From Treponemataceae bacterium (GTDB taxonomy: Bacteria > Spirochaetota > Spirochaetia > Treponematales > Rectinemataceae), in assembly GCA_963667725.2 (NCBI GenBank), contig CAXXHO010000003.1:672001-736000 (forward strand): 64,000 nt of DNA. The letters are read 5' to 3'. Below are positions 21,533-42,284 of this stretch, piece after piece; positions within the stretch are counted from its first letter, which is position 1, and the number at the start of each line of letters is the position of its first letter. The notes beneath the pieces were generated by a model that was not told where the DNA came from, did not search any database, and saw only the letters and a program-made list of their open reading frames with translations. Made by a program: the position numbers and the translations under genes.

Positions 21533-21546
21533 TTAGGACATATGCT

Positions 21547-22548: not shown

Positions 22549-22552
22549 TTCG

Positions 22553-23473: not shown

Positions 23474-23488
23474 AAGAAGGAGTCTTTC

Positions 23489-24241
23489 ATGAAAATTGTC
23501 CGTTTCCTCCATGAAGCCAAGGAAACTTATGGCATCCTCGAGGGGTCCATGATTCGAATAGCCTCAGGCACGCCTTTTGGCGCCTTCGAGACAACCGGAG
23601 CGACCGTTCCACTGTCGGCCGTGAAGCTTCTCTCGCCATGCATGCCCCGCAAGGCCCTCTGCATCGGTCTCAACTACCGCGACCACGCGGTGGAGTTCGG
23701 GCTCGCCATTCCCAAGACTCCCGTCTTTTTTATAAAGCCTTCAACGGCTGTCATCGCCCCTTTCGATTACATTGAGCGGCCGGCCATGTCTAGACAAGTG
23801 GAGTTTGAGGGGGAATTCGTCGTCGTGATCGGAAAGAAAGCAAAGAATGTACCGGCCGCCGATGCCTCCGGCTATATACTCGGCTACACCTGCGGTAACG
23901 ATGTCACCGCGCGCGATCTTCAGCCCAAGGAAGGGCAATGGACAATGTCTAAATCATTCGACAGCTTTCTGCCTTTCGGTCCCTGGATCGAGACGGAATT
24001 GGATCCCTCGTCGCTAAAGATCCAAACCTTTCTCAACGGCCAGGCGAAACAGTCGTCCACTACCGCCAACCTCATTTTCGCCGTTCCGAAGCTCGTGGAA
24101 TACCTCTCCGCGATTATGACCCTTGAGCCTGGAGACATCATTATGACGGGCACTTCTTCGGGTGTGGGGCCTATGCAGGCGGGAGACGAGGTCGTCGTCG
24201 AGATCGAGGGCATAGGCCGACTCGTGAATCCCGTGCGCTGA
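23489..24241 (+). CDS. Fumarylacetoacetate hydrolase family protein
   Basis: IGLNYRDH, FIKP, EGE, NDVTARD, KSFD and PGDIIMTGT motifs. Confidence 0.9.
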   Translation: MKIVRFLHEAKETYGILEGSMIRIASGTPFGAFETTGATVPLSAVKLLSPCMPRKALCIGLNYRDHAVEFGLAIPKTPVFFIKPSTAVIAPFDYIERPAMSRQVEFEGEFVVVIGKKAKNVPAADASGYILGYTCGNDVTARDLQPKEGQWTMSKSFDSFLPFGPWIETELDPSSLKIQTFLNGQAKQSSTTANLIFAVPKLVEYLSAIMTLEPGDIIMTGTSSGVGPMQAGDEVVVEIEGIGRLVNPVR

Positions 24242-24280: not shown

Positions 24281-25480
24281 TTATTTCCTCGAAGCCTCGT
24301 CGTATCCGAAAGCGAGGGCTAGGAGCGCCGTCATCCCTGCTTCCAGCGCCTCGTCGTTGAAATCGAAGGCGGGGTTGTGGAGCTTGGGCCAGTCCTTTCC
24401 CAATCCCAGCCTCATGAAGGCTCCGGGAATCCTGTCCAGGTAATAGGCGAAGTCCTCGGTTCCCATCGAGGGTATGAAGTCTTCCGACCACGAGGCTTCG
24501 CCCATGGTTGAGATGATGATGGATCGCGCCGTTTCCACGCTTTTCCTGTCGTTGATCGTGGGAATATAGCCTTCGAAGAGGGTGAAACTGTTCGTGCAGC
24601 CCAGGGCGGCGCAGGTGTTGGATACGACCGAGCGCATCTTGTCGCCGAGATAGTCCCGAAGTTCTTTGTCGAAATAGCGTATCGTCCCCTCAAGAACCAC
24701 TTCGTCGGGAATCACGTTGCGCGTGCTCCCCCCATGGAGGGAGCAGACGGAGATGACGACGGGCTTCAACGGGTCGACGTTCCGCGACGCTATCGTCTGC
24801 AGCGCGATTATAGACTGGGCGGCGGCCACCACCGGGTCTATCGCCTCGTGAGGCATGCCCCCATGTCCGCCTTTCCCTTTTATCGTGATCGAGAAACTGT
24901 CAGCGGCCGCCATCGCCGGACCGGGAGCGCAGCTTATCTTCCCCGCAGGGAGGCCGCACCATCCATGGAAGGCGAAGGCGACGCTGGCCTTGGGCTCAAG
25001 CTCGAGTAGTCCTTTTTCGATGAGCGCCTTGCCTCCGCCTATCTCCTCCTCAGCCGGCTGGAAAACGAAGCGGACATTGCCCGCGAGGTCACCCGCGAAT
25101 TCGCCCGCGACTTTCATGGCGCCGAGCAACATAGCCATATGGCCGTCGTGTCCGCAGGCGTGGGATCTTCCTTGAGTGACGGAGCTCCAGGGCCTGCCCG
25201 AACATTCCTGAATCGGAAGCGCGTCGATATCGGCCCGCAGAAGCACCGTCGGGCCTGGCCGTCCTCCTCGAAGGAGGGCTACAGTGTCGGTTCCGATCAG
25301 TGGTTCCATCAGCTCGACGCAGCAGCCAGCCGCGAAATCCCTGATGATGGCCATCGTTTCCCGCTCTTCGAATTTCAGCTCCGGCAGGCCGTGTAATCTG
25401 TGGCGCAGCTGCATCACGGATGGCGATATCTCGTGAACCCTGTCGACGATGTTTCTTGACAAGCTCGGTTTCATATTCAT
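24281..25480 (-). CDS. M20D-family amidohydrolase
   Basis: RADIDALP, HACGHDGH, FQPAEE, GGHG, EDF and LHNP motifs. Confidence 0.9.
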   Translation of the reverse strand: MNMKPSLSRNIVDRVHEISPSVMQLRHRLHGLPELKFEERETMAIIRDFAAGCCVELMEPLIGTDTVALLRGGRPGPTVLLRADIDALPIQECSGRPWSSVTQGRSHACGHDGHMAMLLGAMKVAGEFAGDLAGNVRFVFQPAEEEIGGGKALIEKGLLELEPKASVAFAFHGWCGLPAGKISCAPGPAMAAADSFSITIKGKGGHGGMPHEAIDPVVAAAQSIIALQTIASRNVDPLKPVVISVCSLHGGSTRNVIPDEVVLEGTIRYFDKELRDYLGDKMRSVVSNTCAALGCTNSFTLFEGYIPTINDRKSVETARSIIISTMGEASWSEDFIPSMGTEDFAYYLDRIPGAFMRLGLGKDWPKLHNPAFDFNDEALEAGMTALLALAFGYDEASRK

Positions 25481-26793
25481 TAGCCTTCGATACTCGTTTT
25501 TGGGAGGATATAGCTGTCATTGACAACGGCGAGGTCCCGAGCCCCATCCCGAAAAGCCTCTGCGGTCGCGCTGTCGAGATCCCCCAAGATTGGCGCGCCC
25601 AGGAGGTTATGACCCACGATAGAGCGGTTGTTCGTCACGATTCTCAACGTGCATCGTTCGCTGATGCGGCGGATGGCATAGGATGCCACGGCCGCCAAGG
25701 GATCTTCAAGCTTTCCGGAATCGAGGACAGCCAGGATTTCCGCGGGGCTTTTCTCGAGAAGAGAGATGAACTCCGGGTGGTCGCCCAAACCTTCGTCGAG
25801 CGGCGTGACGAGGACGAGAGTCCCGCCATCCTTGACGAGCAGCTCCCCGTTGTAGAAGCCCTTGCCGCTCTGCCATAGGTCTGTGGTCGCTGGGTAGGCC
25901 GAGACCACCACGAGGTCATGTTTTTTCTCGAACGAGGTGGCCATGAAGTCTTCGGCGATGGAGACGCTTCTTTCAAAGGCAGCATGAGGGTTGCCCGCCA
26001 CGACGCCGACGAGACCGCCGATCGTGGGGATACAGTTGACGCTGTATTTCAGCCCCGCGAGATCGCCGATCCTGTCGATGAACCCCCTGAACCAGTTGTC
26101 CTTCTGTCCGGGGATGATATGTTCTTCGATGATGGATTTGTAGTGGCAGCGATAGATCGTTTCGTACCCCGTCAGGCCTGGGCAGACGATCTTGGCGCCG
26201 CCCGACCAGCCCGAGAACTTGTGGGCCACGAGGCTGCCGATGCCGATCACCGTGCCCGCGTCCCTCAGGTTCTTGTTGAGAAGAACGGGAATGCCATCGA
26301 TAATCCCGGCTTTGTACAGTTCCCCGGAATTCATGCAGTCATGCAGGATAATTTCCACGCGGCCGTAAAGCCCGCCAACTTTCATGCGGAGTTCTCGTTC
26401 GTTCATAGGCCTGTGCGTGCCGGCCGAAACCAGGATCATTGTCTGCGCGTCCGAGAGGCCCATGGCGTTCAGCCGCTCCTGAAGCCTCTCCAGAATAGGA
26501 GCCGTCGGGGTTCCCCGGGTATGATCGTCGATGGCGTAGATCACGCGTTTCCGCGGGTTGACTATGTCCTCGAGGGCCTGTCCGTGACGGGAAGATATGG
26601 CTTCGTCGATCGCCCCGAGCAGCGTGGCGCCCTGTCTCGGCAATGGTCCGGGCAGGCTCTGCGCGAAGCGTACCGATTTCGCGACCGATCCGTCGAGGAC
26701 GATCGAATTCGCGGAGTCGAGCCTTACCTCGATAGAGGAAAATTTGGATCTAGAGAGAACCTTCGCAGCATTCATCTTCGCGATTCCTTCCAT
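25480..26793 (-). CDS. LarA-family nickel-pincer alpha-hydroxyacid racemase/epimerase
   Basis: DHTR, AGTHR, HKFSGWSGGAK..PG, downstream His (RCH) and WQSGKG motifs. Confidence 0.85.
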   Translation of the reverse strand: MEGIAKMNAAKVLSRSKFSSIEVRLDSANSIVLDGSVAKSVRFAQSLPGPLPRQGATLLGAIDEAISSRHGQALEDIVNPRKRVIYAIDDHTRGTPTAPILERLQERLNAMGLSDAQTMILVSAGTHRPMNERELRMKVGGLYGRVEIILHDCMNSGELYKAGIIDGIPVLLNKNLRDAGTVIGIGSLVAHKFSGWSGGAKIVCPGLTGYETIYRCHYKSIIEEHIIPGQKDNWFRGFIDRIGDLAGLKYSVNCIPTIGGLVGVVAGNPHAAFERSVSIAEDFMATSFEKKHDLVVVSAYPATTDLWQSGKGFYNGELLVKDGGTLVLVTPLDEGLGDHPEFISLLEKSPAEILAVLDSGKLEDPLAAVASYAIRRISERCTLRIVTNNRSIVGHNLLGAPILGDLDSATAEAFRDGARDLAVVNDSYILPKTSIEG

Positions 26794-26822
26794 GGTAAAA
26801 TCGTATAAACCTTCGCGGGAGT

Positions 26823-27872
26823 CTATTTCGCAAGGGCGCGGATGTCGTCAAGCAGGGAGTTCGGCAGCCGTACGCCATTCTTCATCGAATTAGCCCTTGC
26901 CGTCATTTCTTTCTCTCCGTGGAAGTATATCTTATCCTTTCCTGCGGACCTGGGGCTGGCGCAGAGCCTGTCCATGATGTCCTGCACCTTGGCCTTGATA
27001 GCCTGAGCGTCGCCGAAGGCTTCCACGCGGATCGCGCCGAAGAAGTGGCAGACGCCACCTCCCTGGTCGGTGTAAGTGTCGCGGCTCATCTGTCCTAGCG
27101 ACAAGCCCGCGGAAAGCAGGTCAACGAGGGTAGCCAGGCCGAATCCCTTATGGCCGCCGAATCCTTCGCCTTCCCCGCCTAAAGGAAGGATGCCGCCATA
27201 GGAGTGCGTGTTGAAGTTGTGGATGACGGCTTCGGCATCAGTGGTTCGAGAGCCGTCCTCATCTACGGCCCAGCCCTCGGGTATCGGCTCTCCGGCGCGG
27301 AGCTTCACTTCTATCTTGCCCCTTGGAACTACGCTCGTCGCCATGTCCATATGGAAGGGAACCCTTGTGCCGGGGATGCAGACGGCGATGGGATTCGTTC
27401 CGAGCATGGCTTCCCTTCCGAAGGTGGGGACGACCAGAGGATAGGTATTGGTCATCGAGATTCCTATCATGCCTCTTTTCTGCGCCAGCTCCGAGTAATA
27501 ACCCGCGATCCCGAAATGGTTGGAATTCCTGACTGTGGCGAAGCAGATATAGCTTGCCTCGGCCTTCTCGATGCAGCGCTCCATGGCGAAAATCGATACG
27601 TGCTGTCCTAAACCCCTGTTTCCGTCCACCACGAGGGAGACTGGGGTCTCGAAGACGATCTCGGGCTCGGCCTCGGGGCGGATGAACCCTTGTTTCGCCT
27701 CGCTGAGATAGCGGGTCAGGCGGACGACGCCGTGGGAACGGATCCCTCTCGAGTCCGCCTCGACCAGCACGCGAGCCGCTTCCTCGCTCTTGTCGGCCGG
27801 AAATCCGGCGCGCTGGAGAGCGGCGGCGGAAATCTTCACGAGTTCTTCAAAATCGATCACGATGTCTTCCAA
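26823..27872 (-). CDS. Ldh_2 family (malate/L-lactate/ureidoglycolate dehydrogenase-like) oxidoreductase
   Basis: SHG, NSNHFG, GTNP, DMATS and LPLGG..GHKGFGL motifs; TTG start at 27872 behind GGAGG. Confidence 0.88.
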   Translation of the reverse strand: MEDIVIDFEELVKISAAALQRAGFPADKSEEAARVLVEADSRGIRSHGVVRLTRYLSEAKQGFIRPEAEPEIVFETPVSLVVDGNRGLGQHVSIFAMERCIEKAEASYICFATVRNSNHFGIAGYYSELAQKRGMIGISMTNTYPLVVPTFGREAMLGTNPIAVCIPGTRVPFHMDMATSVVPRGKIEVKLRAGEPIPEGWAVDEDGSRTTDAEAVIHNFNTHSYGGILPLGGEGEGFGGHKGFGLATLVDLLSAGLSLGQMSRDTYTDQGGGVCHFFGAIRVEAFGDAQAIKAKVQDIMDRLCASPRSAGKDKIYFHGEKEMTARANSMKNGVRLPNSLLDDIRALAK

Positions 27873-27939
27873 TGTATCCTCCGTTGTGAGGGCGCCAGAG
27901 ACGCCGTCGCCCGAAATGTCGCCGCCCCATGGCCGCGGA

Positions 27940-29121
27940 TCAGAGCCGGGGGCCGATCCTGGTGATCCCGAAGTCGGCGTAGCCGAAGGCTTCCGATTTC
28001 GTAAGTCTTCCATTCGCGATGTCCGCCACGAAATCGATCATCTTCGCGGACTCCTCCGCGAAGGTGCCGCCTTCCTCGAGAATCGAGGAAACGTCTATGT
28101 CGATGTCGTCTTTCATGCGCTCAACGGTTTTTCTGTTGCCGGTGACCTTGATGATCGGCGTGACGGGATTCCCCAGAGGTGTCCCGAGGCCGGTGGTGAA
28201 AAGCACAAGGTTGCAGCCGCAGGCCATGAGCCCCGTCGTGCATTCCGGATCGTAGCCTGGCGAATCCATGAACCACAGGCCGGGCGTCGAGCCCACCGTC
28301 TCGGCGTATTCGACGACGCCGACGATAGGGCAGGTGTATCCGCCTTTGGAAATGGCGCCCAGTGATTTTTCTTCAATGGTGGTGAGGCCTCCCCTGACGT
28401 TTCCCGGGGAGATATTGTTGGGTACGGCGACGCCGTCCACCTCGTCCCTGTCCTCGCCTCGGCTGTACTCGACCATCTTCTTGATGCGGTCCACCAGCTT
28501 CGCCGCGATCTCAGGGCTGGCGCAGCGCTTGGTGAGGATGCTCTCCGTGCCTATGACCTCGGTGGTCTCCGACAAGACGATTCGCCCGCCCAAGGCGAAG
28601 AGTTCGTCCGAGACATAGCCTACGACGGGATTGGATGAGAGGCTGGACGAAAAATCGCTTCCTCCGCATTCGACGCCGAGCACGATGCTTGAGGGCTGGA
28701 CCTCTTCGCGTTTCATGCCCGCGAGGTCGCTGACCATCGCCGACACGATTTCCTTTCCTCGCTTCACGGTCGAAAGGGTGCCTCCCAGCTGTTGGGTGAC
28801 GATGAATTCGACCGGCTTTCCCGACTTTCCCAAATCGGCCGCCAATTCCTGGGGATCGATCCTCTCGCACCCCAAACCCACGAGAAGGATGGCTCCGACA
28901 TTGGGGTTGAGCCCCGTATTGAGCAGGGTCCTGAACGCCTGCCGATGATCGGCGCCTATCTGCGCGCAGCCCACTTCGTGGTGGACAGCTACGGCGCCGG
29001 GGATATCCTTCGCGATCAGGGAAGCGATATGATTCACGCAGGCGACGACGGGCATAACGAGCGTCACATTGCGAAAGCCGACCTTTCCGTCGGGACGGCG
29101 ATAGCCAAATAATGTCTTCAT
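27940..29121 (-). CDS. UxaA/GarD-family dehydratase, catalytic subunit
   Basis: GYRRPDG.VG.RN, GLGCE, CGGSD, GNVRGGLTTIEEKSLG and FTTG motifs. Confidence 0.88.
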   Translation of the reverse strand: MKTLFGYRRPDGKVGFRNVTLVMPVVACVNHIASLIAKDIPGAVAVHHEVGCAQIGADHRQAFRTLLNTGLNPNVGAILLVGLGCERIDPQELAADLGKSGKPVEFIVTQQLGGTLSTVKRGKEIVSAMVSDLAGMKREEVQPSSIVLGVECGGSDFSSSLSSNPVVGYVSDELFALGGRIVLSETTEVIGTESILTKRCASPEIAAKLVDRIKKMVEYSRGEDRDEVDGVAVPNNISPGNVRGGLTTIEEKSLGAISKGGYTCPIVGVVEYAETVGSTPGLWFMDSPGYDPECTTGLMACGCNLVLFTTGLGTPLGNPVTPIIKVTGNRKTVERMKDDIDIDVSSILEEGGTFAEESAKMIDFVADIANGRLTKSEAFGYADFGITRIGPRL

Positions 29122-29124
29122 CGT

Positions 29125-29403
29125 TTATTCCTCCGTTCTCTTGCTTCCCACATTGTGCACGTGAACATATGAGCCTTTCGTTATTTCGCGGAGGGAATAT
29201 CCTATCTCGAAACCGTATTTTACGACGGCCGCTCCCGCGGGAATCGCGGACAGCGCGATCTTGTGGCCGCGCGGCACTTTTTCGCCGGCCTTCAGTTCAA
29301 CGATATCGGTTAAGCCCTTGCACGAGACGATTTCATCCTTCTCGACGTCGTCCAGCACGGTCGCGACATTGTCGAGCCGATTCATTATCAATCCGCGTTT
29401 CAT
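29125..29403 (-). CDS. UxaA-family SAF-domain small subunit
   Basis: DNVAT, GHKIAL, KYG and VHVHNV motifs. Confidence 0.88.
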   Translation of the reverse strand: MKRGLIMNRLDNVATVLDDVEKDEIVSCKGLTDIVELKAGEKVPRGHKIALSAIPAGAAVVKYGFEIGYSLREITKGSYVHVHNVGSKRTEE

Positions 29404-29407
29404 CGCT

Positions 29408-30109
29408 TCACTCCTTCGTCGCAGGTATCGGGAATGTTATGCTCGACAGTTTATCGCTTACGATCGAGATCAAATGTTTGATGTGGCGGGCGAGCAGTTC
29501 TTTCGCGTTTTCAAGGTCGCCTTTCAATATGAGCTCGCCGATTTGGATATGCTGTTCGAGCTCGGATCGCACCCAATTCATATCGTCGGGCGGCGAGTAC
29601 TTCCTGATGACGTTGCGGTAGCGTTGGATATTAGCCATCAGCCTTTCGTAGGTGTGCTGCAGGTAGGGATTTCGGCAGGAAGCGATGATGAGGTCGTGGA
29701 GGGAGTAATCGAGTTCATATGGAAGGCTCGTGGGGGACTTGTCGTGGAGCTCTAGGAGTTCCCTCATCTCCATGACGAGGTTTTTCAGCACCATCTGGTC
29801 GACGTTGGCGATGGCTCTCTCCAGCGCGAGCAGTTCGAGGGAGAGGCGCATTTCGTAAACATATTCGGAATCCAGCTTCGTCATTGGCGCGACAAAGAAG
29901 CCCTTATTATGGATCCTCCGGATGAGGTCTTCCCTTTCGAGCAGCTGCAGCGCGCCTCTCACCGGCGTTATGCTTACATTCAGGGAAGCCGCGAGGGAGT
30001 TGATGTTGAGCGTCTCTTCCGGTGGAATCTCAAGCGAAATGATCCTGTTTTTGATATTTAGATAGACGACTTTCTCGAGGCTTTGCGCTTCAATGGGTTC
30101 AATATTCAT
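29408..30109 (-). CDS. GntR-family regulator (FCD domain)
   Basis: LNVSITPVRGAL HTH; R..LE, H...I and QH..I FCD motifs. Confidence 0.88.
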   Translation of the reverse strand: MNIEPIEAQSLEKVVYLNIKNRIISLEIPPEETLNINSLAASLNVSITPVRGALQLLEREDLIRRIHNKGFFVAPMTKLDSEYVYEMRLSLELLALERAIANVDQMVLKNLVMEMRELLELHDKSPTSLPYELDYSLHDLIIASCRNPYLQHTYERLMANIQRYRNVIRKYSPPDDMNWVRSELEQHIQIGELILKGDLENAKELLARHIKHLISIVSDKLSSITFPIPATKE

Positions 30110-30939
30110 GACATACCTTCCCGCTTGTTGTGACCTATATAATCTTCAAGTTTTTCGGCCATCTCGGTCAAAAAGACTGATTCTCCCATTTTCTTGTCCC
30201 CGAAGACTTCTACGCTGCAGTAGCCGACGTATTCAAGCCGCGCAAGCAGCTCGAAATATCGCGAGAAATCGATCTTGCCCCTGCCCAGAGGACTGTGAAA
30301 CGTGTCCGCAAGATGAACGAAACCCAATCGGCGCCTATTTTCCACGATGCCGGTTTCCTGGTCGAGCCCCACATGATCGGTGTCCAGAAGCCAGCCGAAA
30401 GTGGATAGACCGGCGACGTCTATGAAGGAGCATGCCTGCGATACGGTGTTGAGGGTGTCGCAGATGTCGGGCCTAAGGGGCTCGATCAGTAGCTTCACGC
30501 CTTCTTCTCCGGCGAGCCTGTCGAGCGCGGAAAAGGATTCGGCCATCGCCTCGAGCGAAGACATCTCATTTCCGTTCCATACTTTTCCGCGAAAACGTCC
30601 TATCCCGACCTTGCAGCCCAAACCGCCGGCCAGCCTGACCACGCTTTCAGCCTTCCTCAGGGCGGCCTTCCTCGCAGAGCCGTCGGGGTCGTTCAGCATG
30701 AGGTTTAGCGAACCGAAGAGTTCGCCGGTGCAGAGCTGGCTCACTTCAAGGCCCTGCGCCAAGACAGCCTTCTTGAAAGCGTCACGATCGAAGAGGTCCG
30801 GATCGCCAATCATCACTTCGATGCCATCAAATCCAAGCCCTTTCATGCATGACAAAGCTTCGGTTAGCGGCAGATTGAGGCCGGTGATGGCGTGGTCTCG
30901 GGGGAGAGAAGGATCGATCCACATATAGGATTTTTTCAT
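30106..30939 (-). CDS. Sugar phosphate isomerase/epimerase (AP-endonuclease-2 TIM barrel, IolO-like)
   Basis: GFDGIE, IEP, DTDH, HLAD, G.G.IDF and SVE motifs. Confidence 0.78.
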   Translation of the reverse strand: MKKSYMWIDPSLPRDHAITGLNLPLTEALSCMKGLGFDGIEVMIGDPDLFDRDAFKKAVLAQGLEVSQLCTGELFGSLNLMLNDPDGSARKAALRKAESVVRLAGGLGCKVGIGRFRGKVWNGNEMSSLEAMAESFSALDRLAGEEGVKLLIEPLRPDICDTLNTVSQACSFIDVAGLSTFGWLLDTDHVGLDQETGIVENRRRLGFVHLADTFHSPLGRGKIDFSRYFELLARLEYVGYCSVEVFGDKKMGESVFLTEMAEKLEDYIGHNKREGMS

Positions 30940-31805
30940 CACGTCCTCGCCGCCAGCTTGCATACGCAGAGGGAGAGATACTTCGCTTCGTCGGAATCGG
31001 CGCGCGAGGTGAGGACGATCGGACACTTCGTTCCCCAAAGAATCCCGCCCACAGAGGCTCCGGCGAGGTGAACGGCCGCCTTGATGAGCATGGCCGCGCT
31101 CTCCAGGTCCGGCGCGATCAGCACATCGGCGGGAGGGACGAATGAAAAGCGAAGGCCTTTCTTTTCGCAGGCGAGGGGAGAGAGCGCCGAATCCAAGGCC
31201 ATCGGCCCATCGACGACGGCGCCGGCGATCTGACCTCTTCTGGCCATGGTCGAGAGAATGGCCGCGTCGCTTCCCGACGTTATGCCCGGCAGCACGAGTT
31301 CGTTGGCGCTGAGGATGGCCACCTTGGGCGTCGTCTCGCCCAGGAGCCTGGAACAGCGGATGGCATTGAGCACAATCTCGACTTTCTGGGCCAGATCCGG
31401 ATAGGGGGTTACGGTACCGTCTGATACGACAATCGGCTTTTCGTAGCCGGGGAGGTCGAGAATGGAGCAGTGCGTGATATAGCCGGTACGGAAGGCCGAT
31501 TTTACGAGGCCCTTGAGGAAGATGTTGGTGTTGACCAAGCCCTTCGCCAGACTGTCCAGGTCTCCCCGGAGGCAGAACTCCAGCGCTTTTTCGATGGCCT
31601 CCGCGGGGCTCCGCGCCAGAACCGTCTCGATTCCTTCTATAGTCGAGGGACTGAAGGCTATGGAATCGGCCACTCCGTTTTCGCGTGCCCGCCGCGCCGT
31701 CCTGACAAGTCCCTCATCGGGAAAGATCAGGCCTACCTTGAAATCCGGCGCGCGGGATTCCGCCTTCTGGACGCATCGAGCCAGTGTCTTCGATAGTTCC
31801 GCCAT
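30939..31805 (-). CDS. Phosphate butyryltransferase-like phosphate acyltransferase
   Basis: KGLV.T, PDL.QK, VDGPMALD, DVLIAP and LTSRADS motifs; adjacent to buk. Confidence 0.82.
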   Translation of the reverse strand: MAELSKTLARCVQKAESRAPDFKVGLIFPDEGLVRTARRARENGVADSIAFSPSTIEGIETVLARSPAEAIEKALEFCLRGDLDSLAKGLVNTNIFLKGLVKSAFRTGYITHCSILDLPGYEKPIVVSDGTVTPYPDLAQKVEIVLNAIRCSRLLGETTPKVAILSANELVLPGITSGSDAAILSTMARRGQIAGAVVDGPMALDSALSPLACEKKGLRFSFVPPADVLIAPDLESAAMLIKAAVHLAGASVGGILWGTKCPIVLTSRADSDEAKYLSLCVCKLAART

Positions 31806-31881
31806 TTTTCTCGATCTCCTTCCTAGTAAAACAGGCCGTGTGCCGATCTCATGCCGACAGGGACGGCTTTTTGACTCGCGC

Positions 31882-32934
31882 TCAATAGTCCAGGGGCAGA
31901 ATGTCGCCTTTCAAGACGTTGCGTACCCCTTCGGCGAGCGCCTCCATCTCGAATTCGCCCGGATACCAGAGCAGCCGGCCGGCGAATCCGAGAGAATCAG
32001 CGAGCATTCCCCGAATTTTTTCGCTATGGATCACGCCTCCCGTGAAGGCGAGGGCGTCGGGTCTGCCGCCGAATAGAGGAAGGAAGCTGGAGACCCCCTT
32101 CGCGATCTGGTAGACGTAGGCGTCGATGACCGACTTGGCTTCCGTATGGTCTTCGGCAAGCTTTAGTATATCCTGAATGTTTCTCATGCCAAAGTGCGAC
32201 ACCATGCCGCCTTCGTGCGCCAGCTCTTTTACCGCTTCAGGTATGGAAATCGCTTTGGCCTCCATGTATTCCAGCAACTTGAGGGTAGGAAGCCCGCCGG
32301 CCCGTTCCACCGCGAAGGGCCCTTCCTGGTCGCTGTTGTAGAGGTCGACCATCCGTCCACGCAGGTGGGCGCTGATGGATCCTCCTCCTCCGAGGTGTGT
32401 CACTATAAGCCCGGCGTCGGCATACTCCATCCCGATCTCCCGGGCGGCTTTTTTCGCGACCGATTTCATGGAGAGAGCATGCGAGAGCGAAGCGCGGCTG
32501 ATGTCTTTGATGCCGGTGATCCTCGCCGTCTCGTCCAGTTCGTCGACGCTGATGGGGTCAACTGTGTAGCCGGGTACGCCGAATTCCTTTTCGAAATCCC
32601 AGGCCATGACCACCGCGATGTTCGCGGGATGCTGGCCCTGGAGTCCGCGCTTCGCGTGGCCGACCATCTCTTCGTTCACCCGGTAGACGCCCGACGATAC
32701 GGGCTTAAGCCGCCCTCCGCGGGCGGCGAAACCGTCAAGCTGTCGGGGGTCTACGCCAATGCGCTCCAAATGATCGAGGACGCCCTGCCTGCGAGCGCGA
32801 TATTGATCGGGGAACAGCGGCAGGTCCAGAAAGGCGCCGACATGTTCCAGCTTAGCGCTGTCGACGCATCGCTCATCTTCGTAGAGAGCGGTGCGCGTCG
32901 ATGTGGACCCGGGGTTCACCACCAGGATAAGCAT
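31882..32934 (-). CDS. buk: Butyrate kinase family carboxylate kinase
   Basis: NPGSTST, RGG.LKP, VDP..VDE, HLGGG, EGPF..ERAG and PGE.EM motifs; start at ATG 32934. Confidence 0.85.
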   Translation of the reverse strand: MLILVVNPGSTSTRTALYEDERCVDSAKLEHVGAFLDLPLFPDQYRARRQGVLDHLERIGVDPRQLDGFAARGGRLKPVSSGVYRVNEEMVGHAKRGLQGQHPANIAVVMAWDFEKEFGVPGYTVDPISVDELDETARITGIKDISRASLSHALSMKSVAKKAAREIGMEYADAGLIVTHLGGGGSISAHLRGRMVDLYNSDQEGPFAVERAGGLPTLKLLEYMEAKAISIPEAVKELAHEGGMVSHFGMRNIQDILKLAEDHTEAKSVIDAYVYQIAKGVSSFLPLFGGRPDALAFTGGVIHSEKIRGMLADSLGFAGRLLWYPGEFEMEALAEGVRNVLKGDILPLDY

Positions 32935-32939
32935 TTCTT

Positions 32940-34208
32940 CTAAGCCTTTCCCACAACGTCGCCGACGATTTTGGCGATCAGGGACTCTTCGAGGACCGTC
33001 TTTCTGATGCGACCTTCCCCATGGATCCTCTCGAGGATGTCCTCGAGCTGCTTTTCCGTCGCTTCGATGCCGTTCTGCCGCAGATAATACTTCACGCTGG
33101 CGTTTCCGCTGAAGGCTCCGTATTTTATTTCCGGACCGGGCCTGCCCACCAGCTGGGGCATGTAGGGGGTCATCGCCGCGTTGATGCCGGCGTCGTTCAA
33201 CTTGTCGAGAGCGTCGACGACGACGCCCGATTCGACCCAGAACAGTCTTTCGCCTACGACGGGACTGTTGTACGCGGGCGACAGCTTCGCTATATCCTGC
33301 ACCAGTTTCGACACGTTCCACAATTTGGAGATGTCGACGCCGGAATCGATGTTGAGCAGGATTTTGAGCGCCGCGGCCACTTGTTCCGTCGCGACGTTTC
33401 CTGTCCTCTCGCCGAGCCCATTCATCGAAGAATGAATCGTTCTCGCGCCTCCCATGACGGCGGCAATCACCGACCCCATGGCCAGGCCGAATTCGTTATG
33501 GACATGGAATTCGAGTCCAATCTTTTCGGGGATCACTTTCCGCAGTTCCTCAAAAGCGAACTGGATGGCCGAAGGTGTACCCACTCCGAAACTGTCGACG
33601 AAGGCTACGGTTTCCGGATTGGCCGCCGCCGCGATCCTGCCGAAGGTGTCAAGGACGTAATCGATGGACGAGCGCGTCGCGTCCCAGCCCATGAAACTCA
33701 CCTTGGTGCCGTTCTTCCTGGCCATTTCGATGCAGTTCGTCACTTTTTCGACGACCTGATCCATGGTGCTGTGATAGACATAGGCGTTCAGGTAAGGATT
33801 GACCGCATGTTCCACGATGATACGGTCGACGCCCACTTCGAGGGCTGCCTCGATATCCTTGGGCATCGCCCTGCAGAATGCGACGATCTCGCTTTTGAGG
33901 TGCATTTGTTTCAGACGCTTGATCGCCCTGCGATTCTCGTCGGAAATTATGGGCATGCCCACCTCGATACGGTCGACGCCAAGCTCGTCGAGGGCTTCGC
34001 CGATCCTGACGCGGTCATCTTCCCTCCACACGAGACCGCAGGTCTGTTCGCCGTCTCGCAGGGTGACGTCGTGGATGCTCACTCTTTTCGGCAGTTTGGC
34101 GTAGGAGGCTCCTTCGAGGTAATTCTGGGGGGAGACCCAGCGCTGCGCGTCAAAATATGGCGTGCCTTTCATGGGCATGCCTTTTAGTTCATGTAATTCG
34201 TTTGTCAT
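32940..34208 (-). CDS. DRE-TIM (LeuA/homocitrate synthase-like) protein lacking the C-terminal regulatory domain
   Basis: DVTLRDGEQ, HVHN and NGLGERTGN motifs; 422 aa. Confidence 0.85.
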   Translation of the reverse strand: MTNELHELKGMPMKGTPYFDAQRWVSPQNYLEGASYAKLPKRVSIHDVTLRDGEQTCGLVWREDDRVRIGEALDELGVDRIEVGMPIISDENRRAIKRLKQMHLKSEIVAFCRAMPKDIEAALEVGVDRIIVEHAVNPYLNAYVYHSTMDQVVEKVTNCIEMARKNGTKVSFMGWDATRSSIDYVLDTFGRIAAAANPETVAFVDSFGVGTPSAIQFAFEELRKVIPEKIGLEFHVHNEFGLAMGSVIAAVMGGARTIHSSMNGLGERTGNVATEQVAAALKILLNIDSGVDISKLWNVSKLVQDIAKLSPAYNSPVVGERLFWVESGVVVDALDKLNDAGINAAMTPYMPQLVGRPGPEIKYGAFSGNASVKYYLRQNGIEATEKQLEDILERIHGEGRIRKTVLEESLIAKIVGDVVGKA

Positions 34209-34286
34209 TTCCGTTTCCTCCTAGCTTTGCTATATAAAATTTGCCGTCAAAAATATTCGCTGTTGCCTGCTCCAGGCGACTTCGTC

Positions 34287-35018
34287 TCAATCTTTCGCGA
34301 AATACATATCCTGGATCATCTGGTTGGAGTGGATCTCCGACACCGGGCCTTCCATGACGATCGATCCCTGCGACAGAATATAGATTCGATCGCTCAACGG
34401 CAGGGACAGCTTGGCGTTTTGCTCCACGATCAGAAGCGTGAGTTTCGTGTTCTTCACGATTTCCTTCAAGGTCCTGAAAATTCTCTGGACGATAACGGGG
34501 GCCAAACCCATGGAAGGTTCATCGATCAAGACGAGATCGCATTTGGAGACAATCGCTCTCCCGATTGCGAGCATCTGCTGTTCGCCGCCGCTCAACGACC
34601 CGGCCTGCTGATTTTTTCGGGTAATCAGTTCCGGAAAGAGCTGGTAAACCTCATCGATTTTCGCCTTGCGCGAAGCGCCCGGAATTCTGGTGGCCGCGAC
34701 TTCGAGGTTCTCGTTCACCGACATCGCCGGAAACACCTGTCTCCCTTCCGGAACATGGGCAACGCCTTCCTTGACGATAGTGTATGCCGGTTTGCCCACA
34801 AGTTGCGCGCCGCAGAACTTGATGCTGGAGCCGCTCTCCGGCTTCACCAGTCCCGAAATCGTGCGCAGGAGCGTCGTTTTTCCGGCCCCATTGGGGCCCA
34901 GAACCGATACCACCTCGCCTTTATTGACATACATGGAAACGGATCGAAGCGCGGTGATGCCGTTATACGCCACTTTCAGGTTTTCGATTTCGAGCATGGC
35001 TTCGTGATTGCCGTTCAT
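34287..35018 (-). CDS. LIV-type ABC ATP-binding protein (LivF-like)
   Basis: GPNGAGKTT, VPEGR, LSGGEQQM, DEPSMGLAP and VEQN motifs. Confidence 0.92.
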   Translation of the reverse strand: MNGNHEAMLEIENLKVAYNGITALRSVSMYVNKGEVVSVLGPNGAGKTTLLRTISGLVKPESGSSIKFCGAQLVGKPAYTIVKEGVAHVPEGRQVFPAMSVNENLEVAATRIPGASRKAKIDEVYQLFPELITRKNQQAGSLSGGEQQMLAIGRAIVSKCDLVLIDEPSMGLAPVIVQRIFRTLKEIVKNTKLTLLIVEQNAKLSLPLSDRIYILSQGSIVMEGPVSEIHSNQMIQDMYFAKD

Positions 35019-35779
35019 TCTTCGTCTCCCAAATAGGCGGTTATGACCGCCCTGTTCTTTTCGATCTCCTCGAATGGTCCCTGGGCGATCACTTCGCCGA
35101 AATTGAGCACATACACCCAATCAACGGCTTTTCTGATGAATTCCATGGTGTGTTCGACCAGCAGCATGGTGATTCTCTTTTCCTTGAGGATATCCATGAT
35201 GCGCAATACCTCGACAAATTCTTCCTTCGTCATTCCGGCCGCGGGTTCGTCGAGCAAAAGCAGGGAAGGTTCGAGCGCGAGAGCCCGGGCAATTTCCAGC
35301 GCGCGCCTTTTACCGTACGGAAGCTTGGACGGATAGGACATCGCGTCGCTTTCGAGGCCCAACAATCGTAGAAGCTCCATCGACTTTTCGTACTGTTCGT
35401 CTTCCTCGCGGCGCAGTTTTTTTGACCTGAACGCCACGTCAAAAAGCGATGACGAGATGAATTTGCCCCTTGGAACCAATACATTCTCCAGAACATTCAG
35501 CCGATCGAAAAGCTGGATCCTTTGAAAAGTCCTGGCGATTCCCATGGAGGCTACTTTGCACGCCGGTTGCTGCGATATCTCCGTTCCCTTGAATTTGATG
35601 CTTCCCGATGTGGGAGGGAAAATGCCGGAAATCTGATTGATGAAGGTCGTCTTGCCCGAACCGTTTGGGCCTATCAGGCCGGTCGTTTTTCCTTCCGTTA
35701 TTAAAAGGTCGATCCCGTTGTTCGCTATGATGCCGCCGAATTTTTTCGTAAGCGCTTTCGTTTCCAGAATATACGACAT
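35015..35779 (-). CDS. LIV-type ABC ATP-binding protein (LivG-like)
   Basis: GPNGSGKTT, ARTFQ, LPYG, DEPAAG, EH and AYLG motifs. Confidence 0.92.
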   Translation of the reverse strand: MSYILETKALTKKFGGIIANNGIDLLITEGKTTGLIGPNGSGKTTFINQISGIFPPTSGSIKFKGTEISQQPACKVASMGIARTFQRIQLFDRLNVLENVLVPRGKFISSSLFDVAFRSKKLRREEDEQYEKSMELLRLLGLESDAMSYPSKLPYGKRRALEIARALALEPSLLLLDEPAAGMTKEEFVEVLRIMDILKEKRITMLLVEHTMEFIRKAVDWVYVLNFGEVIAQGPFEEIEKNRAVITAYLGDEE

Positions 35780-35781
35780 GA

Positions 35782-36783
35782 TTATGCTTTCTCCTTGCCT
35801 TTTGGGTTACGCAAGGTCATAGCTCGCGGATTTTCGCCCCAAAGCCGTGATAGACCATTGAAAAGGCTTGCCCCGAGCCCCTTTGGAAGGAAGATGATGA
35901 TGAGGAGAACGATGGACGCGTTGACTATCAGATAGTAATTCTCGAAGCCCCTGATGTTAAGGCGGAGCAGTTCGGGAAGCCATGTGAGCAGTACACCTCC
36001 GATAACGCCGCCGCTCATGTGGCGCAGGCCACCGACGACGGCCATCGCGACGGCGTTGCCCGATTCGAAAAAGACGAAAGGCTCCGGCGTGAGAAATCCC
36101 AGCATGTGAGCGTAGAGACTGCCCGAGAGTCCCGCCAGGGCGGCGGAAAAGCTGAACGCCATAATCTTCGTGTTTTTGGAGTTGATTCCGCAGGCTTCGG
36201 CGGCGATTTCGTCGTCGTTCACCGCGAACATCTTTCGTCCGATATGCGAATATTTTATCCGGTTAATCAAAACGAGAGACAGAACGGCGAAAGCGAGAAA
36301 CACATAATAGTACATCGCGTTCGAAAACAAATTATTCCCTATTTTCATGAGAGGAATGTTGAACAGACCCTGGGATCCCCCGGTCAGCTTCGTCAGATTC
36401 ACAAGCAAAAGCCATACGATCTGCCCGAAGGCGATCGTCATTAGCGAAAGGAAGAAAGCCTTCAGCTTGAATGAAGGGATCGCCACCAAAAGTCCAGCGA
36501 AAGCGCTGAGCGCGACGCCAGCGAGGATGCCGACGGGAATGGGCAGTCCCAGTTTCACGGTCACGAGCGCCGAGGTATATGCTCCGATCGCGGAGAAGCC
36601 TGCCTGACCAAGAGAAATCTGCCCCGCGAAGCCGGTAAGAAATACCAAGCCTGAAGCCAAGATCACATTCAGCAGGGCTCGATTTGTCACGAAAAGATCA
36701 TAATCGTTCCTGCTCAGCAGAGGCATGCAGAGGAGGAAGGTGAAAAACAGGAAATAGATGATTCGTTTTATTATTTGGCGCAT
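35782..36783 (-). CDS. LIV-type ABC permease (LivM-like)
   Basis: GQISLGQAGF..IGAY, TGG.QG and EIAAEACGI motifs; hydrophobic. Confidence 0.9.
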   Translation of the reverse strand: MRQIIKRIIYFLFFTFLLCMPLLSRNDYDLFVTNRALLNVILASGLVFLTGFAGQISLGQAGFSAIGAYTSALVTVKLGLPIPVGILAGVALSAFAGLLVAIPSFKLKAFFLSLMTIAFGQIVWLLLVNLTKLTGGSQGLFNIPLMKIGNNLFSNAMYYYVFLAFAVLSLVLINRIKYSHIGRKMFAVNDDEIAAEACGINSKNTKIMAFSFSAALAGLSGSLYAHMLGFLTPEPFVFFESGNAVAMAVVGGLRHMSGGVIGGVLLTWLPELLRLNIRGFENYYLIVNASIVLLIIIFLPKGLGASLFNGLSRLWGENPRAMTLRNPKGKEKA

Positions 36784-36787
36784 TGCT

Positions 36788-37681
36788 TCAGTCTCCTTTG
36801 GTTGTCCAGTTAAAAATGCCTCGCGGCTTCCAGAGCAGTACGACAACGAGAATCATGAAGGAGATGATATCCTTGTAGGCCGACGAAATGAAAAGCGTGG
36901 AAAAGTTCTCGATCAAACCTATCGTGATTCCGCCGAGAATAGCGCCGAAAGGATCGATCAAGCCTCCCATCACCGCGGAAGCGAATCCTTTCACGCCGAT
37001 CGATCCGCCCCCGAGTTCCAGGGACACGAAATATATAGGGGCGAGTAAAATGCCCGCTATGCCGACTATCGTGGTCGCCATCATGAAGGCGATGGATGTT
37101 GTCAGGTTGACGTTGACGCCCATAAGCGCCGCGGCTTCCTTGTTCTGAGCGGTTGCCCTGAGCATTTTTCCTATGAAAGTCTTTCGGAGAAGAAAGTAAA
37201 GACCGAGAATCAGCAACAATACGACCAGGAATATCCAGAAATAGACCGAAGGGATGCTTATCGGTCCCATCTGGACAAAACTAGTGGCTTCGCCGAAAAC
37301 GGGGGGGAAGGGCTTCGGAAGACCGCCGAAGGTGGCGTTTATGACCGACAGCCACAATATGCACAACATCAGCGTGGCGACAACGAATTCGAGTTTGTCT
37401 CCGCCGTGCCGGGTGATCGGTTCATAGACGAGATAGCGCAACAACATCCCATAAATCGCGATGATCAGTATCGAACAGATGAAAGATAGAAAAAACCCGA
37501 AATGCAGCTGAGTATAGAATGTGTAAAACAAGTACGCGGCAAGCATCGCTGAACTTATGTTCGCGAAATTTATCCTGTTTATGCTCTGCCAGAGGAAAAC
37601 GACGCCGAGGCCTATAAGTCCATAGGTGGACCCCACGGTTACACCGCCAATAATATTTTGAAGAAGATCATTAAAAAGCAT
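36788..37681 (-). CDS. LIV-type ABC permease (LivH-like)
   Basis: INFA, LRATAQN.EAA.LMGVN and KPRGIF motifs. Confidence 0.9.
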   Translation of the reverse strand: MLFNDLLQNIIGGVTVGSTYGLIGLGVVFLWQSINRINFANISSAMLAAYLFYTFYTQLHFGFFLSFICSILIIAIYGMLLRYLVYEPITRHGGDKLEFVVATLMLCILWLSVINATFGGLPKPFPPVFGEATSFVQMGPISIPSVYFWIFLVVLLLILGLYFLLRKTFIGKMLRATAQNKEAAALMGVNVNLTTSIAFMMATTIVGIAGILLAPIYFVSLELGGGSIGVKGFASAVMGGLIDPFGAILGGITIGLIENFSTLFISSAYKDIISFMILVVVLLWKPRGIFNWTTKGD

Positions 37682-37774
37682 GGATGTTTCCTCTCAAAGC
37701 CTGGAATTTAGCCAATCCGGCCGGGAGTACCTGCCGAATTGGCTACGAAGAAGCGAAACGCTAGGAATGTCTGA

Positions 37775-38920
37775 CTATTGAATCTTCGTGATTATCTTCC
37801 ATATCTTGCCGTCGAACTGCGAGATGTAGCAGATGTCGGTGTAATTGTGCAGCGCGTCCATCTTCATTCTCCCCTGTACGCCAGTATATTCGATGGTCGA
37901 CAAGGCTTCGGTAATCTTCACGGAATCGGTGGATCCGGCCGTTTCGATCGCCTTTTTCAGCAGATAAACGCCATCATAATAGCACTGGGCGGGATCGCTG
38001 GGCTCTCTGCCCCATTTGGCCTTGTAGGCGTCCACGAAGGCTTTCACGGGCGGATCGGTATCCGCGGGGTTGAATCCTTGTACCGAGATTACGCCCACGG
38101 CCGCGTCGCCAGCCAGGTCCGTGAAGGCGGGAACGCCCCAAGCCGAGAAACCGACGACAGGCGCGGTGAGCTTCATCTGGCGATACTGCTTCATCACGAC
38201 GGCCGCTTCTGGCTCATGGGTAAGTCCGACGAGACAATCGATGCCCGCGTTCTTGAGCTTGGTGATCTGGGCGGTGACGTCCTTGTCGCCCTCTTTCATG
38301 TTCTCTATATCGACGATCTTTATGCCGTATTTCGCGAAGGCTTCTTTGGCGACGTCGAGCGCCGAAGTGCAATAGTCCGTGGATCCGACGATGACGCCTG
38401 GCCTTTTCGCCTTGAGCACTTCCGCTATGTACTTGACTTGCTGGGCGACTTTGATGCCGTCATCGGCGCGAAGCCTGAACAGATAGTCGTTCTTAACTTT
38501 GTCGAATCGGAAGGAAGGGGAAGTGGCTCCCACGAGCATGGGTTTCTTGGCCTGCTGGGCGAGCGTATGCACGCCGATGACCGCCGCGCTCATGTTCGGG
38601 CCGAATATCGCCACGGCCCTATCGTCGAAGAGCGCCCTGCGAACGACCGTCGCCGCCGTGCTTGCGTTCGCCTGGTCGTCATAGACCACGAGGTCGAACT
38701 TCGCGCCCGCTACACCGCCAGAGGCGTTGATCTCGTCTATGGCAAGCAAGGCGCCCTGTTTGATGTAGTCGCCCAGGATCGACCCCAGCCCTGTAAATGG
38801 GGCGCTGAGAGCAATTTTAATAGGCTTCGACGGGTCTATTTTCCCCTGTCCCCAAACGTTGCCGTTTATGAGGATGAGCAGAATCAAGCCTACGAAAACC
38901 TTTCGAGAGAGCTTTTTCAT
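37775..38920 (-). CDS. LIV-type (periplasmic binding protein type I) substrate-binding protein
   Basis: Signal peptide; AIDEINASGG.G, YDDQ, YLFR and YDGV motifs. Confidence 0.88.
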   Translation of the reverse strand: MKKLSRKVFVGLILLILINGNVWGQGKIDPSKPIKIALSAPFTGLGSILGDYIKQGALLAIDEINASGGVAGAKFDLVVYDDQANASTAATVVRRALFDDRAVAIFGPNMSAAVIGVHTLAQQAKKPMLVGATSPSFRFDKVKNDYLFRLRADDGIKVAQQVKYIAEVLKAKRPGVIVGSTDYCTSALDVAKEAFAKYGIKIVDIENMKEGDKDVTAQITKLKNAGIDCLVGLTHEPEAAVVMKQYRQMKLTAPVVGFSAWGVPAFTDLAGDAAVGVISVQGFNPADTDPPVKAFVDAYKAKWGREPSDPAQCYYDGVYLLKKAIETAGSTDSVKITEALSTIEYTGVQGRMKMDALHNYTDICYISQFDGKIWKIITKIQ

Positions 38921-38950: not shown

Positions 38951-39008
38951 ATATATGATGCATCATGCATGATTGAAGAACAGTATACCGATACTTTTCA
39001 TATGTCAA
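38951..39008 (-). promoter_or_regulatory. sigma70 promoter and downstream operator-like heptamer array for the LIV operon
   Basis: Minus strand TTGACA (39008-39003) with TACTGT (17-nt spacer) or TATACT (15-nt spacer); + strand ATATATG-ATGCATC-ATGCATG at 38951-38971. Confidence 0.65.
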
Positions 39009-39173: not shown

Positions 39174-39205
39174 AACGGCCGCGCCCTGTCCAGGGCGCGG
39201 CCGTT
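39174..39205 (-). terminator. Strong hairpin after dctM
   Basis: AACGGCCGCGCCCTG-TC-CAGGGCGCGGCCGTT, 15-bp arms; T-tail is weak. Confidence 0.7.
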
Positions 39206-40511: not shown

Positions 40512-40514
40512 AGC

Positions 40515-41030: not shown

Positions 41031-41113
41031 AAATCCCTTCCTTTTTAAAACTGAGGGCAACCCGCTCGATGGAACCGCGGGTTGCCCATGGCTCTATGCC
41101 ACGATGATCAGTA

Positions 41114-42235: not shown

Positions 42236-42284
42236 ATATTCCTCCTTGCTTCAACATGGATGTCCACAGGGACATCCTGAAAAA

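Follow-up and report, generated by a model that had tools for sequence, protein, structure and literature searches.

Organization of the operon

The 64,000-nucleotide stretch analyzed here (the window; positions 672,001 to 736,000 of contig CAXXHO010000003.1, Treponemataceae bacterium assembly GCA_963667725.2) belongs to contig C3 of a 4.2-Mb host genome (G000) that is 97% complete in eight contigs. Its minus strand carries, from 38920 down to 24281, a run of 15 co-oriented genes that forms a real, conserved and uncharacterized catabolic operon, including a non-canonical DRE-TIM enzyme and an acyl kinase/phosphotransacylase pair. A check of the open reading frames (ORFs) confirmed the gene order given in the initial annotation. 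Likely starts that are shorter than the longest ORFs were assigned to the kinase Buk (32934), the epimerase (30939), the Ldh_2 dehydrogenase (about 27872, a TTG codon) and LivF (35018), and with these corrections 9 of the 14 junctions span 5 nt or less and all 14 less than 100 nt, in agreement with the tight spacing noted before. The gene set recurs in other genomes, and the arrangement is therefore more than chance.

The first five genes encode an ABC transporter of the LIV type, consisting of a LIV/HAAT-type solute-binding protein (37775-38920; Peripla_BP_6, with distant solved relatives, best E-value 3e-35), LivH-like and LivM-like permeases (36788-37681 and 35782-36783; both BPD_transp_2) and LivG-like and LivF-like ATPases (35015-35779 and 34287-35018; both ABC_tran). 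They are followed by the LeuA/homocitrate-synthase-like DRE-TIM enzyme (32940-34208; HMGL-like), a butyrate-kinase-family acyl kinase (31882-32934) and a phosphotransacylase resembling phosphate butyryltransferase, Ptb (30939-31805; PTA_PTB). Next come an IolO-like keto-acid epimerase/isomerase with a xylose-isomerase-like TIM barrel (30106-30939; AP_endonuc_2, nearest structure TM0416), a GntR/FCD regulator (29408-30109), and the 92-residue SAF subunit (29125-29403) and catalytic subunit (27940-29121; GD_AH domains) of a split UxaA/GarD dehydratase. The run ends with an Ldh_2-family 2-hydroxyacid dehydrogenase (26823-27872), a LarA-superfamily racemase/epimerase of an uncharacterized clade (25480-26793) and an M20D amidohydrolase (24281-25480; TIGR01891 over cut-off, nearest structures YxeP and IAA-amino acid hydrolase).

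Pfam and NCBIfam uphold the families assigned earlier (M20 amidohydrolase, Lar_N, Ldh_2, GD_AH, GntR/FCD, AP_endonuc_2, PTA_PTB, acetokinase, HMGL-like and LIV-type ABC), with the SAF subunit just over its cut-off (21.6 versus 21 bits) and without a match at E 1e-8. Among the 13 proteins scanned, only the kinase and the M20 protein reach a curated NCBIfam cut-off. A look-up in the ESM Atlas returned generic names only, and plasmid searches gave no close or informative match. The combination of genes had been thought unlike any described pathway, and a literature search whose coverage leaves out most subscription journals found no paper describing either the combination or the branch to which the DRE-TIM enzyme belongs.

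Conservation across genomes

A genome scan anchored on the DRE-TIM enzyme gave 76 loci from the best 80 of 589 confirmed matches, and a similarly anchored scan of metagenomes gave 62; collapsing these 138 loci (numbered L below) at 90% identity left 86 that are non-redundant. Close, or core, loci (n = 18) are those with a DRE-TIM identity of at least 45% and 5 kb of flank on both sides, the 45% line having been set after inspection of the data, and 38 loci are classed as distant. Among the matches listed, the module is found in anaerobes of the Spirochaetota, Cryosericota, Thermotogota and Bacillota. Named records with a 99% identical DRE-TIM are Treponemataceae/Rectinemataceae spirochaetes (L011 and L012). 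The genome-neighborhood check suggested by the initial annotation finds the core genes together in most of the 18 close loci. Named homologs of the DRE-TIM enzyme also come from Mesotoga and Tissierella.

Within the close loci, the kinase is present in 17, the transacylase, UxaA and the LIV binding protein in 16 each, LarA in 15, the epimerase and a 2-hydroxyacid dehydrogenase in 13 each, and M20 in 12. The corresponding figures for the 38 distant loci are one each for kinase, transacylase, LarA and M20, two for UxaA, four for the LIV binding protein, none for the epimerase and 13 for the 2-hydroxyacid dehydrogenase. In the smallest complete clusters (L023 and L119), DRE-TIM is accompanied by kinase, transacylase and UxaA. 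The core does not include M20, Ldh_2, the epimerase or the LIV transporter, which can be exchanged or dispensed with. Gene order is near-identical in a spirochaete and in Cryosericum at 77% identity, and a close DRE-TIM is held by only 3 of the 60 relatives examined, which together suggest horizontal spread of the module. In L013, LivG appears in two ORFs (8546-9160), and in L094 the cluster appears by eye to be interrupted by transposase-like ORFs (13950-15124).

Identical slots are taken by unrelated families in different loci (REPLACEMENTS). The dehydrogenase slot is occupied by Ldh_2, by EtfAB with a GlcD-type FAD oxidase, or by a D-2-hydroxyacid dehydrogenase; the amidase slot by an M20D or an ArgE/DapE-type protein; the transacylase slot by Ptb or PduL (PduL in L017); the kinase slot by Buk or an AckA-family protein (the latter in L021); and the transporter slot by a LIV, TRAP or NMT1-type system. 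Two further genes are found in some Bacillota loci: an IlvD whose score exceeds the cut-off for dihydroxy-acid dehydratase, and an additional LarA of the LarAH10-like type. The distant locus L034 brings together UxaA, a LarA-like gene, DRE-TIM, IlvD, TctA/TctC and a CoA-transferase that exceeds the cut-off for the succinyl-CoA:acetate CoA-transferase ScpC (632.6 versus 500 bits). The acyl-CoA step therefore survives replacement of its enzymes, with PduL standing in for Ptb, an AckA-family protein for Buk, and a CoA-transferase in L034.

The DRE-TIM enzyme

The protein has the hallmarks of the DRE-TIM superfamily, namely a TIM barrel, the Pfam HMGL-like domain, R51, D52 and E82, and the metal-binding histidines H235 and H237. 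Its predicted structure (predicted local distance difference test score 93.8) finds homocitrate synthase as the best Foldseek match, with a template-modeling score of 0.82 to the S. acidocaldarius enzyme (SaHCS), to which it is ~32% identical, and the model retains the C-terminal subdomains of acetyl-CoA-using synthases. The sequence likewise matches these synthases far better (E 1e-57) than it does aldolases (E 5e-10). It falls below every curated synthase cut-off (best 304 of 517 bits) and lies outside the HMG-CoA lyase clade (69 of 246 bits; E 1e-12 to 2ftp).

The catalytic dyad of Claisen synthases is made up of a glutamate at the end of strand-β5 and a histidine in the linker into subdomain I. 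Compared with SaHCS and NmIPMS, the operon enzyme has Trp175 in place of the glutamate and Val325 and Val330 in place of both linker histidines, and a new glutamate, Glu133, is found on strand-β4. Both synthase residues are absent from all 82 proteins of the genome loci, 75 of which have the β4 glutamate, and the LeuA- and CimA-like proteins of the host genome itself retain the β5 glutamate and the linker histidine. From a library of 150 representatives at 50% identity, 133 were compared, 17 having been dropped for length. The β4 glutamate occurs in 57 of them, none with the β5 glutamate and one with the linker histidine; both synthase residues occur in 33, none with the β4 glutamate; and 43 show neither pattern. 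In a FastTree phylogeny, the operon enzyme belongs to a separate branch of 83 rows (SH-like support 95), none of them with both synthase residues; all 33 synthase-type rows lie on the other side. That branch comprises at least 56 clusters at 50% identity, and its database labels mostly read homocitrate, isopropylmalate or LeuA-family synthase.

Other members of the branch have different surroundings. The host genome has a second one (L209; G000:C3:57386-58597; 36% identity), situated between a TRAP/GntR pair and a cyclase with a molybdopterin oxidoreductase; beside the distant members, cyclases recur in 13 of 38 loci and xanthine-dehydrogenase-type subunits in 11 of 38. Dehalococcoidia loci (L032 and L035-L038) carry two tandem members, the upstream copy having Gln for the β4 glutamate. 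Seven loci of Desulfobacterota and related organisms (L030, L044, L051, L056, L063, L074 and L082) have a GlcD-type FAD oxidase after the DRE-TIM gene, and five of them also have a CCG protein, an arrangement that recalls glycolate oxidase beside malate synthase. A role in the pantothenate pathway was considered and rejected, as PanB adjoins DRE-TIM in only four loci, none with UxaA or the kinase.

The kinase and transacylase

The kinase exceeds the cut-off of the butyrate kinase model TIGR02707 (306 versus 289 bits). When it is aligned to T. maritima Buk2 (PDB 1saz), however, the hydrophobic acyl pocket is not matched: Leu77 is replaced by Arg, the Phe before the catalytic His by Ser, and an Ile by Gly. 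The Arg is found in 41 of 43 Buk rows, the exceptions being one truncated row and one with Leu in a distant locus, and neither of the host genome's two other Buk genes has it. These belong to two further Buk/Ptb pairs, one of which adjoins genes resembling a 2-oxoacid oxidoreductase. Ser or Gly takes the place of the Phe that stands two positions further along the pocket motif. The acyl site of AckA includes the Phe position and Val93, as stated in a passage of PMC3475010. By alignment, the Arg of the operon kinase would adjoin the Val93 equivalent, and the Arg and Gly positions presumably both contribute to the pocket.

Among the replacements, the AckA-type kinase of L021 keeps the Val and Phe of a small pocket. 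This kinase (L021:15847-17031) and another of its family (L081:3984-5048), both adjoining DRE-TIM, have Lys at the position of the conserved Arg91 of acetate kinase, with another Lys following shortly after it in the sequence. The transacylase is a PTA_PTB member that scores under the NCBIfam cut-offs.

LarA and its missing cofactor genes

Alignments to 5huq, 9eia and 6d6z show that the operon protein has matching residues for Asp72, Arg75, His108, His174, Lys184, His200, Gln295 and Lys298 in the L. plantarum enzyme. Among them are the two catalytic histidines, the tethering lysine, the nickel-binding histidine and the Arg75 of racemases that use the nickel-pincer nucleotide (NPN), and these are conserved in homologs. 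The residue directly after the second catalytic histidine (His174) is Lys in the operon protein and Lys or Arg in 37 of 39 LarA rows, and Trp replaces Tyr294. Passages in PMC11851776 and PMC11770544 describe the position after His174 as contacting the substrate side chain. The best matches are malate racemases (LarAH5/6), the nearest solved relative being Mar2, with scores below the curated cut-offs (Mar2 model, 185 of 500 bits; the other malate-racemase model, 166 of 462). Malate racemases have His/Gln and Lys at the Trp358/Thr359 positions, according to a passage of PMC11770544, and alignments of the operon LarA to solved relatives end before these positions. Plain lactate was rejected as the substrate because the LarA pocket differs.

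Passages of papers on LarA present NPN as the product of LarB, LarE and LarC, and these passages do not take up the case of a host in which the three are lacking. None of the 11 genomes with an operon-linked LarA, the host included, has LarB, LarC or LarE over cut-off; completeness is given for the host and not for the locus-derived genomes, several of which are ~2 Mb, so single absences are weak. Over all 17 genomes searched, the three were found in one (G072, whose DRE-TIM locus lacks LarA), and they were found in five to six of 14 control genomes. Within the host family, 44 of 54 genomes that are at least 85% complete have Lar_N, 10 have LarC and nine have both, leaving 35 Lar_N-positive genomes without a LarC match; the host has four Lar_N genes, three besides the operon LarA. 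The gap is thus family-wide, and we rejected the idea that lacking LarB, LarC and LarE is a trait specific to the operon.

The dehydratase, dehydrogenase and epimerase

The SAF and GD_AH domains that define UxaA/GarD dehydratases are both present. The catalytic subunit scores 212 of 731 bits on the GarD model, its only solved relative is galactarate dehydratase 6u7l, and plasmid matches to UxaA, at 46% identity or less, are mostly named just UxaA family. The mechanism given for UxaA/GarD enzymes in a passage of PMC6336799, which distinguishes nine subfamilies of them, is removal of the 3-hydroxyl group from 2,3-dihydroxy acids. For Ldh_2, the nearest solved chains are named malate dehydrogenase (1v9n and 3i0p), followed by sulfolactate dehydrogenase, and the best NCBIfam match is L-sulfolactate dehydrogenase (234 of 500 bits). 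The epimerase stays below the cut-off for IolO, the 5-keto-L-gluconate epimerase (120 of 300 bits).

A proposed mechanism and its alternatives

From the observed gene content, conservation, residue changes and fold, we infer the reactions, directions and substrates that follow. Our best reading, put forward tentatively, is that DRE-TIM acts as a reversible, non-hydrolyzing lyase of the malyl-CoA type and that it is coupled to a transacylase and kinase of the malate type. The operon, presumably repressed by GntR, would catabolize a polar hydroxy-dicarboxylic acid of the malate or tartrate type, imported either free or as an amide that M20 would cleave. The Arg of the kinase, the Lys/Arg of LarA and the malate-enzyme relatives of LarA and Ldh_2 point to such a polar dicarboxylate. 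On its homocitrate-synthase scaffold, DRE-TIM would form or cleave the C-C bond that links acetyl-CoA to a 2-oxo acid, leaving the thioester unhydrolyzed. The dedicated phosphotransacylase and kinase would interconvert a substituted malyl-CoA and the free acid via an acyl phosphate, so that the energy of the thioester would be recovered as ATP or, in reverse, the acid would be activated for cleavage. UxaA, and in some loci IlvD too, would convert a 2,3-dihydroxy acid to a 2-oxo acid, and LarA, the IolO-like enzyme and the interchangeable 2-hydroxyacid dehydrogenase would set stereochemistry and redox state. As an example, glyoxylate and acetyl-CoA may give D-malyl-CoA, then D-malate with ATP, L-malate and finally oxaloacetate. 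A malyl-phosphate route reportedly operates in glycolate-oxidizing syntrophs; the S. glycolicus genome paper makes no mention of malyl.

The malyl-CoA-lyase reading would account for the loss of the residues and the retention of the subdomains, for an acyl-phosphate pair that is obligatory, and for the presence of a succinate-type CoA-transferase and of accessory enzymes of malate-like character. One proposal of the initial annotation was fermentation of an N-acyl or hydroxy acid with substrate-level phosphorylation. Hydroxy-acid fermentation that proceeds by way of an acyl-CoA and an acyl phosphate, the acid in some cases coming from an amide, fits the co-occurrence and residue evidence. That annotation correctly perceived a catabolic module and overlooked the altered active sites and missing cofactor genes.

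Several points weigh against the malyl-CoA-lyase reading. The loci are related by descent and many rows are near-copies, so the counts overstate independence. Of the 38 distant loci, one has the kinase/transacylase pair and two have a CoA-transferase, so that most of the wider family is without clustered handling of an unusual acyl-CoA. The glyoxylate example leaves UxaA unexplained although it is core (16 of 18), and neither what UxaA dehydrates nor how the partnerless distant members work is accounted for. PduL and the AckA-type kinase of L021 would be better suited to a small acyl group than to a substituted malate, and the Phe-to-Ser change of the kinase is also seen in one housekeeping Buk paralog. 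The β4 glutamate could be the relocated base of an ordinary synthase, and a passage of PMC9860122 ties His379 to allostery and not to catalysis. Finally, LarA may be inactive, given that the search did not find LarB, LarC or LarE.

A serious contender, though an unlikely one, is an energy-conserving form of the non-phosphorylative Route III, in which DRE-TIM would cleave C3-C4 of a 2,4-dioxo acid with CoA and not water. An aldarate or keto-sugar acid would be epimerized by LarA, oxidized by the 2-hydroxyacid dehydrogenase, isomerized by the IolO-like enzyme and dehydrated by UxaA, and the products would be pyruvate and a small polar acyl-CoA (e.g. tartronyl-, oxalyl- or glyceryl-CoA) yielding ATP via Ptb/Buk. 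There is a parallel in Herbaspirillum, where a UxaA/GarD dehydratase feeds a 2,4-dioxo-acid hydrolase, as a passage of PMC6336799 describes. A single line would then use every core enzyme, UxaA included, and the make-up of the smallest clusters is in keeping with it; the small acyl group would suit PduL and the AckA-type kinase, and CoA activation would be unneeded, in line with its rarity in the distant loci. However, just one of the 18 core loci has an SDR 4-dehydrogenase, seven loci have, near DRE-TIM, FAH-family genes that the scheme would make superfluous, and the ScpC-like transferase indicates a C4 dicarboxylate. The scheme also demands a new type of reaction, as a DRE-TIM enzyme that cleaves a 2,4-dioxo acid with CoA is not known to us. 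DRE-TIM might also be a CoA-independent aldolase or decarboxylase for a 2-oxo acid delivered by UxaA or the dehydrogenase, with a housekeeping ferredoxin oxidoreductase making the acyl-CoA and Ptb/Buk just harvesting ATP downstream. The superfamily includes aldolases and carboxyltransferases (weak matches), the 2-hydroxyacid dehydrogenase is the partner common to close (13 of 18) and distant (13 of 38) loci, and a tautomerase follows DRE-TIM in L024. Yet the accessory subdomains are kept, the E-values given above favor synthases over aldolases, and the labeled neighbor families of the core loci include no 2-oxoacid oxidoreductase or acylating aldehyde dehydrogenase; we regard this explanation as quite unlikely.

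The nearest relatives in fold and sequence, homocitrate and isopropylmalate synthases, speak for an ordinary thioester-hydrolyzing alkylmalate synthase whose base has moved and which would serve a LeuABCD-like cycle of elongation or assimilation, with acyl-CoA supplied by Buk/Ptb. The β4 glutamate, kept in 75 of 82 proteins, and the Dehalococcoidia tandem copies, which lie among housekeeping-like genes, are consistent with this. A LeuABCD-like cycle had been offered in the initial annotation, and we consider it improbable, given that both synthase-kept residues are lost, that UxaA is not of the aconitase type and its chemistry does not isomerize a tertiary to a secondary alcohol, and that no aconitase or LeuB family is represented among the 15 genes; LeuA- and CimA-like genes already exist in the host genome, and the high-affinity importer and candidate repressor site suggest catabolism. 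Last, the substrate could be sulfolactate or another sulfonate, with the split UxaA as the sulfo-lyase SuyAB, Ldh_2 as ComC and LarA as a sulfolactate racemase. SuyAB has a split architecture, the best NCBIfam match of Ldh_2 is to the sulfolactate enzyme, an NMT1/THI5-type ABC transporter is present in one locus (L022), and the cationic pocket residues would fit any anion. This idea is nonetheless very hard to credit: neither a sulfite exporter nor a sulfite reductase is among the recurring neighbor families, solved malate dehydrogenases outscore the sulfolactate enzyme, and the obligatory DRE-TIM, kinase and transacylase would be left unexplained.

What the malyl-CoA-lyase reading and the Route III variant have in common, acyl-CoA-linked C-C chemistry by DRE-TIM coupled to an acyl phosphate, we hold to be somewhat probable. 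The more specific proposition is doubtful as a whole, namely a module for substrate-level phosphorylation in which an intact dicarboxylyl-CoA, formed by a non-hydrolyzing Claisen reaction or by CoA-dependent 2,4-dioxo-acid cleavage, is turned into ATP by a dicarboxylate-adapted Ptb/Buk pair, and in which LarA works without LarB, LarC and LarE.

The operon offers a compact, testable entry to a widespread DRE-TIM branch that is labeled synthase yet lacks the residues that synthases keep. If the malyl-CoA-lyase reading or the Route III variant is true, anaerobes of four phyla make ATP from hydroxy acids in an unrecognized way, and if the kinase is as proposed, buk/ptb genes, which are commonly taken to signal butyrate production, have among them a clade adapted to polar acids. 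The Lar_N-positive genomes without a LarC match (35 of 44) raise the question of how nickel-pincer enzymes obtain their cofactor; a LarA that functions without LarB, LarC and LarE would imply that the nickel-pincer cofactor is taken up from neighbors or reached by another route, or that the enzyme uses some other cofactor.

Putative promoter and operator, and flanking clusters

The sequence upstream of the operon contains a putative sigma-70 -35 box (39003-39008, minus strand) and, 17 nt downstream, a weak -10 element (38980-38985, minus strand). Just downstream of this promoter is a 12-bp palindrome (38955-38966). The -35 box is kept in four of five aligned upstream regions, and the core of the palindrome is invariant in all five, one of which is a Thermotogota locus. 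We read the two as the likely operon promoter and a candidate GntR operator. A consensus promoter/terminator scan, whose counts were at chance level, did not return this -35 box.

A 14-bp hairpin (39174-39205) separates the operon from an upstream TRAP/enolase cluster (39228-46437) that comprises a pair of dehydratases of the mandelate-racemase family sharing 50% identity, along with a TRAP transporter and a GntR regulator. This cluster was rejected as part of the operon, as it is kept only in the closest relatives and the hairpin intervenes. On the other side, convergent with the operon on the plus strand (21499-24241), are a PfkB kinase and an indigoidine-synthase-A-like protein, which we take to be a pseudouridine kinase and glycosidase, and an FAH-family hydrolase. 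The FAH gene (23489-24241) was observed solely where the identity reached at least 97% and was likewise rejected as an operon member. A plus-strand sugar cluster (49108-60995) encodes an FGGY kinase, Gfo/Idh/MocA dehydrogenases, xylose-isomerase-like barrels, a sugar ABC transporter and LacI.

Comparison with known systems

All parts of the operon come from known superfamilies, and DRE-TIM, the kinase and LarA each fail a defining test of their nearest named family. HMG-CoA, citramalyl-CoA and malyl-CoA lyases act in routes that include a CoA-transferase or thiokinase. Judged by its context, the operon may share their chemistry, the reversible C-C cleavage of a hydroxy-acyl-CoA coupled to interconversion of acid and CoA ester, but its enzyme is synthase-like in sequence and the coupling would be provided by the Buk/Ptb pair. 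With the Claisen synthases that make homocitrate, 2-isopropylmalate and citramalate (PDB 6ktq, 3rmj and 3bli), the operon DRE-TIM has in common the TIM barrel, the Arg-Asp-Glu residues, the His-x-His metal site and the C-terminal subdomains, whereas it lacks the β5 glutamate and linker histidine, has the β4 glutamate, belongs to a separate branch and is found in a catabolic context.

Route III of pentonate and deoxyhexonate catabolism, as outlined for Herbaspirillum huttiense in a passage of PMC6336799, uses a dehydratase of the same UxaA/GarD family followed by C-C cleavage of a 2-oxo acid. According to the same passage it relies on an SDR 4-dehydrogenase and an FAH hydrolase and involves no acyl-CoA, whereas the operon core has neither of these enzymes and has DRE-TIM, Ptb, Buk and LarA instead. 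The malate racemases Mar1 and Mar2 (passages of PMC7583248, PMC11770544 and PMC11851776) have catalytic and cofactor-binding residues in common with the operon LarA, which differs by the Lys/Arg after His174, by Trp for Tyr294 and by a host in which LarB, LarC and LarE were not found. Finally, phosphorylation by Ptb/Buk, as represented by T. maritima Buk2 (PDB 1saz), involves the same kinase family, an adjacent transacylase and the same catalytic motifs; the operon kinase is set apart by an Arg and small residues at or near the acyl pocket.

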